DNA of 16,161 bases from a virus (Duplodnaviria; Heunggongvirae; Uroviricota; Caudoviricetes), in the IMG/VR virus record IMGVR_UViG_2737471845_000010, positions 1 to 16,161 of that record. The stretch is one strand, 5' to 3'. The notes under the pieces are model-generated. The model saw only the letters and a program-made list of their open reading frames with translations, had not been told where the DNA came from and ran no database searches. A program made the translations under genes and the position numbers. Below, piece after piece: positions 3,101 through 13,174 of this stretch; position 1 is the stretch's first letter; each line of letters opens with the position of its first letter.

Positions 3101-4150
3101 TTACCCGAGCACGCCGGTTGCAAAGGCGTGATCAAGAAAACGAAAAATTAAATCAACCTGGGAACCATGCTTTTCTTCGAACGCCAGCGGATCCGCATGA
3201 AGTTCGTTGTGATGTTCCCGGCATAACGGTAGCGTGAAAATATCGTGGGATTTTGTTCCCATTCCGCCCTGACCATGACCAATCAGGTGATGGGGATCGT
3301 CGGCTGGCTTACCACAGCACGCACACGGCTGTGTCTTTACCCAGCGTGTATATTTCTCATTTATCCAACGGCGACGTTTAGGTCGCTTCATGAAAGATTC
3401 CGGAGACTCCGGATCTACGGCAATGCTGACCACCGTCTTTTCCTGTGGTGCGTTCTGTTGCTGGTGGGCGTGAGGTGGTAGCGCAATATTTTTTGTGCGC
3501 TGCTTCAGTATGCTGGTAGCTGTCTGCTCTCCCGGTACGATGTCGCTTTCGCGGTACAGGGAACGGATTTTTTCCACCGGTAATCCCAGCGAACGGCGTA
3601 ATACTGCTTCCGGTAGCGCGTCCGCCACCTGATTGCAGACCGCCCACCAGGATAATTCAGCCAGCGATAACTCCCGCTCCTGCGTGCCATTCATTGCGTG
3701 ACGGATGACGTCAATCATCCAGGCTGTCAGATTTTGATGAGCAAGTTGCTCTAGCGATTCCGAGGTCTGGTCGCGCAGTTGATTGTCACAGTGCCAGCAC
3801 AACACCATCGCGCCGGTACCGTAACGATGTATGACGATTTCACTGTGATGATAGTCACCATGAGGCCACTGGCAGGATTTGACATGACGCAGGAGCCAGT
3901 CAGATAGTGCACCAGCGCCGCCAGCAGCACGAATCACCCGCTCATCGCTGAAAAATGGCAGTAATGATTTATCTTCCGCCAGCGGCTGGCGAACGGCAGG
4001 AACAGCTCCGGACGGCAGACCGCGCATGTTTTTCGGTTCCGGCTCCACCAGCACTCGAGGGCTATGAAATACCTGCATGGATTCACGGCCAGGTTTAAGG
4101 ACCACCAGCCCAAGTTCCGGTACATGAACAGGTCGAAGCAATACCCGCAC
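3101..4150 (-). CDS. nin-region protein with C-terminal HNH-like zinc-binding motif (DUF968-like)
   Basis: 349-codon ORF; GTG start at 4150 preceded by GGAGG and coupled to the upstream gene's stop. C-terminus contains CACCGKPADDPHHLIGHGQGGMGTKSHD…PLCREHHNELH, a Cys/His-rich HNH-type pattern. Confidence 0.75.
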   Translation of the reverse strand: MRVLLRPVHVPELGLVVLKPGRESMQVFHSPRVLVEPEPKNMRGLPSGAVPAVRQPLAEDKSLLPFFSDERVIRAAGGAGALSDWLLRHVKSCQWPHGDYHHSEIVIHRYGTGAMVLCWHCDNQLRDQTSESLEQLAHQNLTAWMIDVIRHAMNGTQERELSLAELSWWAVCNQVADALPEAVLRRSLGLPVEKIRSLYRESDIVPGEQTATSILKQRTKNIALPPHAHQQQNAPQEKTVVSIAVDPESPESFMKRPKRRRWINEKYTRWVKTQPCACCGKPADDPHHLIGHGQGGMGTKSHDIFTLPLCREHHNELHADPLAFEEKHGSQVDLIFRFLDHAFATGVLG

Positions 4151-7023: not shown

Positions 7024-7320
7024 TCACTGCATCGCCTTCTGTAAAATAACCGCATGCCCCAGCTTCTCCGCCAGCGCCAGTTCTGCCTTAGCACCCGCCG
7101 ACCGCTGCCAGCCATTCAGCATGTAAATCGCATCCACGCAACGTATCATCGCCATGCAGATATCCATGTACTGCGACTGAGTCAGTCCGTCCGGAAGTAC
7201 TGCCGGGTTTAAGACGGTATGCCCTTCCCGTTTCAGTTCCTCTTCTGCCTTGTGGAACGCCTCACGGTTGAAATTTTTATACCCGGTCATCGGACCGGCG
7301 ATATAAACCCTCACCCTCAC
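7024..7320 (-). CDS. DUF4406-like protein (nucleoside 2-deoxyribosyltransferase-like fold)
   Basis: GTG start with strong AGGAGGTG RBS, overlapping the upstream stop. N-terminal RVYIAGPMTG…FN…AF motif typical of this family. Confidence 0.7.
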   Translation of the reverse strand: MRVRVYIAGPMTGYKNFNREAFHKAEEELKREGHTVLNPAVLPDGLTQSQYMDICMAMIRCVDAIYMLNGWQRSAGAKAELALAEKLGHAVILQKAMQ

Positions 7321-7709
7321 TCAATCACCTCCTGAAAATTACCCCGATAGAACGCCAGTACACGTTGCATTGATTCGCTGTTACGGCATTCCCGGCAAAT
7401 TATGTTCATGTCTCTGTCGTAGCGACGGATTTCACCATCAGGTAACTTCCGGACCAGTGCCGGGTCAGCTTTCTTCGGAGTTTTACACCACGCCTGATAC
7501 GCCTGTTCTGATACAAAAACACCGTGTTTACCGGATATGTACAAATCACCACAAGCAACCACATCCACAAGACAACGTCTGACCGTATGCCAGCCCGCCC
7601 CCGTTGCCCTCTCCAGTTGCGACATCGTCATGCGTTTGTTCCTGTGTATCAGCCCGATAATTCGCGCCTTCAGTTCTTCCCGCTGTTCGGGTGTAAAAAC
7701 GCTTGCCAT
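7317..7709 (-). CDS. hypothetical protein with predicted HTH segment (130 aa)
   Basis: AGGAGG RBS upstream of ATG 7709; segment MTMSQLERATGAGWHTVRRCL resembles a helix-turn-helix. Confidence 0.7.
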   Translation of the reverse strand: MASVFTPEQREELKARIIGLIHRNKRMTMSQLERATGAGWHTVRRCLVDVVACGDLYISGKHGVFVSEQAYQAWCKTPKKADPALVRKLPDGEIRRYDRDMNIICRECRNSESMQRVLAFYRGNFQEVIE

Positions 7710-11552: not shown

Positions 11553-11750
11553 ATGCAGAAACGAGAACCCGTCATCATCGCGCCAGACTATACCGATGAT
11601 GAACTTTATGAGTGGATGCGCCAGAAAATTAATGCAGCGCAGGATTTGAAATGGGCCAATGAAGCTAGGGCTAAGCAGGCTGAAAATCTGTCCGCTCTGG
11701 AGCAGGATATCACCAGGCTGGAAAAAGCAGCGGCATTAAGCATTGCCTGA
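11553..11750 (+). CDS. small hypothetical early-left protein (65 aa)
   Basis: RBS AAGGAG 6 nt upstream of ATG; coiled-coil-like C-terminus. Confidence 0.65.
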   Translation: MQKREPVIIAPDYTDDELYEWMRQKINAAQDLKWANEARAKQAENLSALEQDITRLEKAAALSIA

Positions 11751-11793
11751 ATGATTACATACCCACGTTAATAGCTAACCAACGAGGCTAATA

Positions 11794-12412: not shown

Positions 12413-12747
12413 TCACCCTCCTGAAGGTTGGTAATTAAGGAGTTCTCCACGGGTGGGGTGGAGTGCGTGCGCCGGACACGGGTGAGCATCCGGCACTGAC
12501 AGTTTACTGAAAGGATATTTCTCTGAAAAGTCAGAGCATAACGCGAAAGCGCACGGCGAGGTTGCTGGTTCATAGATAGCCTGTCGTTAAATTTTCGTCG
12601 ACCGTGCGCTTCCGGTTGTGGCACCCCGCGAAATGGCGCGGCGGTAAGTATGGCGGGGTTATCCTTACCCCCACTGGTGGCACCGGGTTGTCAGGTTGAC
12701 CATACGCCTGAGTGACAACCCCGCCACAACATCTCCATGTTGAGGCT

Positions 12748-12802
12748 TGTGTGAGACCTTTGGCGGCATCAGTTTAATTGCTGGCTGATGTCCGCCCTTT
12801 TT
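12748..12802 (+). ncRNA. dicF: DicF-like small RNA (cell-division inhibitor sRNA family) ending in an intrinsic terminator
   Basis: Sequence …CCTTTGGCGGCATCAGTTTAATTGCTGGCTGATGTCCGCCCTTTTT closely resembles my recollection of E. coli DicF (GGCGG…AUCAGUUU…CCGCCCUUUUU). Long imperfect hairpin GGCGGCATCAG / CTGATGTCCGCC plus T-run. Located directly upstream of a dicB homologue, as in Qin. 5' boundary is approximate. Confidence 0.55.
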
Positions 12803-12985
12803 AAAGTGAATTTTGCGATGCGGTGAATGCGGCTAAGCGCACGCGGAACAGTTAAAAAGGCCAGTTGACTTCCGTATTGGTTCTTATGGGTGGGTTCTCT
12901 GTATCCGGCGTTAATTGTTAACTGGTTAACGTCACCTGGAGGCACCAGGCACCGTATCACAAAATTCATTGTTGAGGACGCGATA

Positions 12986-13174
12986 ATGGAAACGTTATTA
13001 CCAAACGTTAATACGTCTGAAGGTTGTTTTGAAATCGGTGTCAGAATCAGTAACCCTGTATTTACTGAAGATGCCATTAATAAGAGAAAACACGAACGGG
13101 AGCTATTAAATCAAATATGCATTGTTTCAATGCTGGCCCGTTTACGCCTGATGCAAAAAGGACGCTGCCAATGA
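12986..13174 (+). CDS. dicB: DicB-like cell division inhibitor (62 aa)
   Basis: Translation METLLPNVNTSEGCFEIGVRISNPVFTEDAINKRKHERELLNQICIVSMLARLRLMQKGRCQ is near-identical to the E. coli DicB sequence as I recall it. GAGGA RBS; the tracked ORF's upstream extension is not needed. Confidence 0.8.
   Translation: METLLPNVNTSEGCFEIGVRISNPVFTEDAINKRKHERELLNQICIVSMLARLRLMQKGRCQ

Follow-up and report, generated by a model that had tools for sequence, protein, structure and literature searches.

The element at positions 12748–12802 of the 16,161-nt stretch of viral DNA analyzed here (the window) is best described as a rare, genuine relative of DicF and KilS, which, judged by its sequence (UGUGUGAGACCUUUGGCGGCAUCAGUUUAAUUGCUGGCUGAUGUCCGCCCUUUUU, plus strand), combines Qin-type surroundings with the stem of KilS and a loop of a third type. 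We consider it probable that the element encodes a terminator-derived sRNA of the DicF/KilS family whose target range has changed and which is predicted to act on neither ftsZ nor xylR. Among prophage sRNAs, DicF is the textbook inhibitor of cell division, and in annotation 'DicF-like' matches are taken as ftsZ inhibitors. The results showed that the diversity of the family at this locus goes far beyond the K-12 allele: the Rfam threshold misses two of three types (the window allele and KilS), and at least one recurrent hairpin type lacks complementarity to ftsZ and xylR.

The E. coli prophage that carries the element is Qin-like, and the element has a ydfC-like gene upstream and dicB downstream. 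Over 1 kb around it, the sequence identity to prophages of E. coli tcmA_3, E9, and TUM1881 is 99.9%. The prophage of tcmA_3 is annotated as lambdoid and integrated beside yccA; it also encodes Q, RusA, Hok, a replisome organiser, YdaT, Cro, and a cI-like repressor. The gene order there is ydfC, a hypothetical gene, an unannotated gap in which the element lies, dicB, a DUF1482 gene, an exonuclease, and an integrase. The order in the Qin prophage of K-12 (ydfABC, dicF, dicB, ydfD) matches this one, and the element thus occupies the site by which DicF is recognized, between ydfC and dicB in the dicB operon of a lambdoid prophage. In the window, the ydfC-like gene (11553–11771) carries a CGA to TGA change at codon 66, by which the last seven residues are lost in comparison with tcmA_3.

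Divergence from K-12 Qin is found mostly within 12725–12797, whereas the flanks are 95–100% identical. The identity to K-12 is 35% in the 23 nt before the 5' end, 57% (8 of 14 positions) in the tail, and 76% in the hairpin. The original prediction stated that the 3' terminator and the flanking bases match those of DicF; this was true of UUUGGCGG, CCGCCCUUUUU, and the outer DNA, but not of the 5' tail or the 23 nt that precede it. The upstream region (12611–12724) corresponds by homology to the sequence by which the 190-nt DicF species of K-12, an RNase III product, is extended at its 5' end. Two hypervariable patches were also observed within DNA that is otherwise 95–100% identical to that of K-12: 12663–12684 (59% identity), which lies in the tip of a predicted hairpin in the upstream structured region, and 12861–12890 (37% identity), an indel patch in the dicB leader.

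Features of the element and its surroundings, with positions in the window.
Feature	Position	Strand	Basis and remarks
ydfC-like gene, upstream in the same operon	11553..11750	+	premature stop, 7 codons short
Conserved structured upstream region	12611..12724	+	95–98% identical to K-12 except patch 12663–12684
Divergent segment before the predicted 5' end	12725..12747	+	35% identity to K-12
Predicted single-stranded 5' tail, candidate seed UGUGUGAGACCUUU	12748..12761	+	Rfam alignment; unpaired probability ~0.9
Type C terminator hairpin (predicted)	12762..12796	+	arms GGCGGCAUCAGUU / GGCUGAUG-U-CCGCC, loop UAAUUGCU; folds and terminator scan
C and five-U tract	12797..12802	+	intrinsic-terminator tail; same in K-12 DicF and KilS
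Conserved terminator-to-dicB leader	12803..12985	+	90–100% identical to K-12 except indel patch 12861–12890
dicB, 62-aa cell-division inhibitor, first downstream gene	12986..13174	+	translation; annotated DicB in the 99.9% identical NZ_CP059835.1

In the predicted fold, a short single-stranded 5' region is followed by a Rho-independent terminator hairpin and a U-tract, as expected of DicF. The 5' end of the tail was set by alignment with the Rfam DicF model and K-12 dicF and is therefore a predicted one. The stem is near-perfect and comprises 13 bp, in which 12762–12774 pairs with 12783–12796 (with a bulged U at 12791), and it encloses a loop of 8 nt. This is in agreement with the original prediction that the internal segment differs from that of DicF and forms a near-perfect hairpin, the alignment to K-12 dicF placing the differences in the loop and the 3' arm. 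For a 66-nt stretch around the element, the fold had −25.4 kcal/mol (z = −3.9), an energy not reached by any of 200 shuffles. At mature length, the fold of the window allele reached −21.0 kcal/mol vs −15.9 kcal/mol for K-12 DicF, and with this stronger stem the 3' half would be buried. The hairpin was also recovered by a consensus terminator scan. Double changes were found in two pairs of the stem, which is no more than in shuffles and not significant. Sequence conservation and thermodynamics are thus what point to the structure, and the stem appears to be kept mainly through sequence identity.

Judged from the sequence, the element has the GC-rich stem-loop followed by a run of U residues that defines an intrinsic (Rho-independent) terminator. 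It could be an intrinsic terminator only, i.e. a tL-type stop that separates the ydfC block from dicB and has interchangeable hairpin variants, where the tail would be a spacer and the transcript would have no role in trans. The canonical stem and U-tract, the greater strength of the stem in comparison with that of K-12, and its conservation by sequence with little covariation would all be consistent with this explanation, which is taken up again below together with the distribution of the hairpin.

In a sensitive scan of 1 kb, the Rfam DicF model (RF00039) matched 12748–12797 over its full length (model positions 1–52 of 52) with 45.4 bits and E = 1.6e-8, so that the resemblance to DicF that had been predicted was recovered as a full-length match below the threshold. 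The gathering score of RF00039 is 48 bits, and the window allele lies under it; thus, a default Rfam scan is silent on the element, and the scan of the whole window at gathering thresholds gave no match. With the same model, K-12 DicF scored 76.7 bits and KilS 39.1 bits. Complementarity to the ribosome-binding region of ftsZ is the function that defines DicF, and in silico the 3' part of the window allele did not display such complementarity.

The 3' part of DicF pairs with the ribosome-binding region of ftsZ and its 5' end with xylR; both pairings have been confirmed by compensatory mutations and are Hfq-dependent (PMC5069750). In our analysis, whole-molecule duplex folding gave unrealistic full-length duplexes, and a local score consisting of the local duplex and accessibility was used instead. 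The noise floor of this score is −5 to −9 kcal/mol, and weak sites are therefore not callable. The local score recovered the published sites of K-12 DicF in ftsZ (nt 32–53 with −29 to −7), xylR (nt 6–15 with +8 to +19), and pykA. Under the same conditions, the window allele reached −1.6 kcal/mol with ftsZ, vs −7.2 kcal/mol for K-12 DicF. This value and those for xylR (−5.9 kcal/mol), pykA (−6.5 kcal/mol), and manX (−6.2 kcal/mol) are at noise level, like the values of arbitrary allele-target pairs.

The same picture was obtained when only the duplexes were scored and compared with those of 500 shuffles. The 3' half of K-12 DicF formed a duplex of −27.8 kcal/mol with ftsZ (0.4% of shuffles as good), whereas that of the window allele reached −14.9 kcal/mol (63%). 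The 5' tail of K-12 DicF paired with xylR at −16.7 kcal/mol (0/500 shuffles), whereas the tail of the window allele gave −7.0 kcal/mol (57%). The short form of KilS paired with yncL −38 to −27 in a 12-nt duplex with a total of −7.3, and the best value of the window allele was −3.1, at another site. With its different tail and its closed hairpin devoid of CUCC, the window allele is predicted to leave ftsZ and xylR, the best-validated pair of DicF targets, unrepressed. The suggestion that the changes in the element could alter its target range is thereby strengthened, as in silico the pairing with both mRNAs was no better than that of shuffles. In the 40 translation-initiation regions that were scored from the prophage and the neighbouring chromosome, no site for the window allele stood out, and a search of the window for cis targets, in which the loop and the 5' tail were each used as reverse complements, returned the element itself and chance-level matches only.

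The possibility was also considered that the element controls cell division via ftsZ through a pairing site other than that of DicF. In a scan of 801 nt of ftsA–ftsZ, the 5' tail paired with −300 to −287 inside ftsA (12 bp, −15.9 kcal/mol, 5% of shuffles as good) and the loop with ftsZ +154 to +167 (12 bp, −16.0 kcal/mol, 11% of shuffles), these percentages being uncorrected for multiple tests; moreover, the sRNA adjoins dicB, which encodes an inhibitor of the FtsZ ring. However, G-U pairs are abundant in both duplexes, neither is near the start codon, and they are marginal in comparison with shuffles. In addition, the validated DicF–ftsZ duplex is not conserved, and the RIL-seq partner of the sister allele KilS is yncL and not ftsZ. 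It is thus very improbable that the element acts on ftsZ in this way, and we prefer the reading that an sRNA from this locus would have targets other than ftsZ and xylR.

Among the 5,426 complete E. coli genomes, the K-12-type DicF 57-mer was present in 3,967 (6,398 places) and the KilS-type 63-mer in 1,430 (1,433 places), while the 41-nt hairpin of the window, designated type C, was found in 139 (18 identical) at 176 places. The exact 55-mer of the window occurred in 11 of these genomes, which were from varied hosts, and in 7 IMG/VR contigs; another 7 genomes were identical across positions 8–55 of the 55-mer. The description of the element as a DicF-like variant is hence upheld, since these counts, with 11 genomes for the exact 55-mer vs 3,967 for the K-12 type, exclude identity to a common allele. 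The locus in the window is not the only one with the altered internal sequence, which is a conserved hairpin type present in the 139 genomes. The other type C alleles, which are from E. coli prophages, have the same 41-nt hairpin with at most 1–2 substitutions.

When IMG/VR was scanned with the conserved flank downstream of the element, 120 loci with 31 distinct alleles were obtained, and a scan with the type C hairpin gave 87 contigs. The hairpin was near-invariant in the 87 contigs, the variation being restricted to one loop position (A/C/U), one stem position (A/G), and rare singletons. At least 10 unrelated 5' tails were found in combination with the type C hairpin (at least nine of them in alleles other than that of the window, e.g. 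GCUGUGUGAAGUACCAGUU and CCAUGUUGAUUACCUUUU), and the hairpin occurred with both Qin-type and Rac-type upstream regions. The gene downstream was dicB at 68 of 73 DicF-type loci and kilR at 21 of 23 KilS-type loci; the 74 type C loci were followed by dicB in 31 cases, by kilR in 9, and by neither in 34, mostly by a third ORF. Thus, tails, hairpins, and downstream genes reassort, and the cassette is modular. Since the hairpin has remained near-invariant despite the many tails, contexts, and genes with which it is combined, the data argue for purifying selection on the hairpin type and not for decay.

These observations bear on two of the alternatives. If the element were a decaying, non-functional remnant of DicF that arose by recombination in a cryptic prophage, the rarity of the allele (11 genomes), its recombinant appearance, with a Qin-type upstream region and KilS-type hairpin arms, and the premature stop in the neighbouring ydfC would be accounted for. 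However, the mature sequence is the same in all 11 complete genomes, whose hosts differ, and in the 7 IMG/VR contigs, the hairpin is intact and stronger than that of K-12, and the early genes, dicB, the exonuclease, and the integrase are intact in the prophage region. We thus find it very unlikely that the element is such a remnant. The alternative that the element serves solely as a terminator would be in accordance with the highly variable 5' tails, which are what unconstrained sequence would look like, and with the result that no target was found among those scored. It is nonetheless unlikely on the evidence of the loop: the 8 nt of the type C loop varied at a single position among the 87 contigs, and a terminator does not constrain its loop. 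Furthermore, experiments have confirmed DicF and KilS, the sister alleles found at this position, as Hfq-associated sRNAs, and the existence of discrete, internally conserved hairpin types fits selection on the sequence better than drift. We therefore retain the reading of the element as a probable sRNA.

At most of the 34 type C loci that are followed by neither dicB nor kilR, an ORF beginning MLNVAIENQNGWNYSAPAPHKTGAG... takes the place of these genes (for example at locus L144). This third ORF starts approximately 150–180 nt after the start of the leader, and it may encode another host-killing or division-inhibiting protein.

A broader pattern may underlie the distribution of the alleles. 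We tentatively propose, as a possibility that we rate at somewhat less than even, that the DicF position in lambdoid prophages is a recombining 'seed-swap' cassette, of which only the DicF type is aimed at ftsZ. In such a cassette, a conserved terminator scaffold and leader would be combined with discrete hairpin types (DicF, KilS, C, and D) and with interchangeable 5' tails. If this is true, type C, which is found in 2.6% of the complete E. coli genomes, would be a distinct regulatory RNA with host or phage targets of its own, and prophages would diversify the regulation of their hosts through the exchange of modules of 15–40 nt. This pattern of a conserved scaffold with swapped seeds is a more interesting lead than the allele itself. 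Within the literature accessible for full-text search, we found no paper containing the type C hairpin sequence and no description of the scaffold pattern, and on DicF-like variants or alleles we found only a 2016 mSystems paper and a 2009 modelling paper.

K-12 DicF is produced from the dicBp transcript as a 190-nt species generated by RNase III and a 53-nt species generated by RNase E (PMC10448788), and it is both RNase III/E-processed and Hfq-dependent (PMC5069750, PMC10448788). By analogy, the element of the window would be the stem-loop that ends the first part of the early-left (dicB) operon of the prophage, and it would be transcribed with this operon. The 3' end would be formed by termination at the U-tract, as in DicF, and the C with the U-tract is presumed to serve as a site for Hfq binding. 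Processing would release an RNA of approximately 55 nt and perhaps also a longer form of approximately 190 nt. The released RNA would then act in trans by base pairing via its 14-nt 5' tail, and possibly via the 8-nt loop, and would regulate mRNAs other than those of ftsZ and xylR. The RNase E site of K-12 (AU-rich, AUCAAU/UUUCUGG) is replaced at 12725–12747 by a segment that can pair with the 5' tail in the unprocessed transcript (folds contain a small hairpin at 12742–12760), and the mature 5' end is therefore uncertain.

In the predicted fold of the 190-nt precursor of K-12, the segment GGCGGUAAGUAUGGCGGGGU (locus L002, K-12 Qin, 3277–3296) pairs near-perfectly with the ftsZ-binding 3' half of DicF (3414–3434). 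The window retains this segment but not its pairing partner. Co-evolution of the pairing with the hairpin was considered and found to be unsupported, as the segment is the same across hairpin types; judged by the folds, the pairing may be a coincidence or a property of the K-12 type alone.

The leader of approximately 190 nt travels with the sRNA cassette in front of three unrelated genes, i.e. dicB, kilR, and the third ORF, and it has the look of a conserved RNA element that would regulate the toxic downstream gene in cis. Within the leader, at approximately 12913–12935 (GTTAATTGTTAACTGGTTAAC), repeated GTTA/TAAC motifs were observed. Motifs of this type are criteria for ArcA sites in the report on sRNA-17, a 193-nt prophage sRNA of E. 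coli K1 RS218 from an mEp460-like prophage (PMC7719688). A K-12-type dicF–dicB locus is present in the phage mEp460_ev081, and sRNA-17 might be derived from this region.

We also obtained DicF-like pattern matches in Verrucomicrobia and WOR-3 MAGs (loci L004, L005, L008, L011, L012, L014, and L015). These were rejected as unrelated, as they appear to be conserved coding sequence; the opposite strand, translated by eye, reads like what we take to be the chaperonin GroES (...KGGIIIPDTAKEKPQEG...).

If the alleles are expressed, different E. coli strains would produce different small-RNA regulators from one and the same genomic slot. This would bear on strain-specific physiology and on the regulation of virulence, and it would provide a natural system for the study of sRNA seed exchange. 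If they are not expressed, the locus would amount to a variable terminator.

Among known systems, the leader can be compared with STnc100 (RF02076). The window aligns at 12795–13018 with the whole of the 206-nt model, as does the K-12 leader. The window match reached 34.9 bits, but the gathering score is 47, and the leader is thus not a member of STnc100 by the Rfam criterion; the match concerns the leader and not the sRNA. The full-length sub-threshold scores were 34.9 and 34.4 bits, and the leader was also observed at loci L002 (3433–3642) and L140 (approximately 7230–7405, minus strand).

K-12 DicF (RF00039, b1574) is found in Qin at the same site as the element of the window, after ydfC and before dicB, and the two have a common layout of a 5' tail of approximately 14 nt, a terminator hairpin, and CCGCCCUUUUU. 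The upstream precursor region and the downstream leader of K-12 Qin are 90–100% identical to those of the window outside the patches. The tail, by contrast, reads UUUCUGGUGACGUUU in K-12 DicF and UGUGUGAGACCUUU in the window, and the loop with the 3' arm reads ...UUUUACUCCGUGACUGCUCUGCCGCC in K-12 DicF and ...UUUAAUUGCUGGCUGAUGUCCGCC in the window. More precisely, the K-12 loop ACUCCGUGA corresponds to AAUUGCU and the 3' arm CUGCUCUG to CUGAUGU. This replacement closes the internal loop of DicF in the window allele, and the stem, which is interrupted in DicF (−15.9 kcal/mol), has thereby become near-perfect (−21.0 kcal/mol). Both the CUCC anti-Shine-Dalgarno motif and the xylR seed of DicF are absent from the window allele. 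An allele of Salmonella shows another combination, in which a window-like tail (UGUUGUGUGAGAG) is joined to a DicF-like hairpin that retains CUCC.

KilS was detected by RIL-seq with yncL as its partner and confirmed by northern blotting (PMC8175672); DicF is unmentioned in this study by Bar et al. (2021). KilS (b4833; annotated with 98 nt) occupies the equivalent site in the Rac prophage of K-12, upstream of kilR and in a Rac-type upstream context, and the downstream leader is common to the KilS locus, where it precedes kilR, and the window. The window element is not located in a kilR 5' UTR, the gene downstream here being dicB. The stem arms of KilS (GGCGGCAUCAG / GCUGAUGUCCGCC) and its U-tract are identical to those of the window allele, and its tail (GCUGUGUGUAGUCC) is UGUGUG-rich and related to that of the window. 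The mature sequences differ in the loop, which is UUUUUUUCUUGAAGUUCG in KilS and 10 nt shorter in the window. The candidate seed of KilS, UGUGUGUAGU, pairs with the yncL 5' UTR, whereas the window reads UGUGUGAGAC, with which this pairing is lost in silico. Thus, as far as sequence comparison can tell, the mature region of the window element is nearer to KilS than to DicF.
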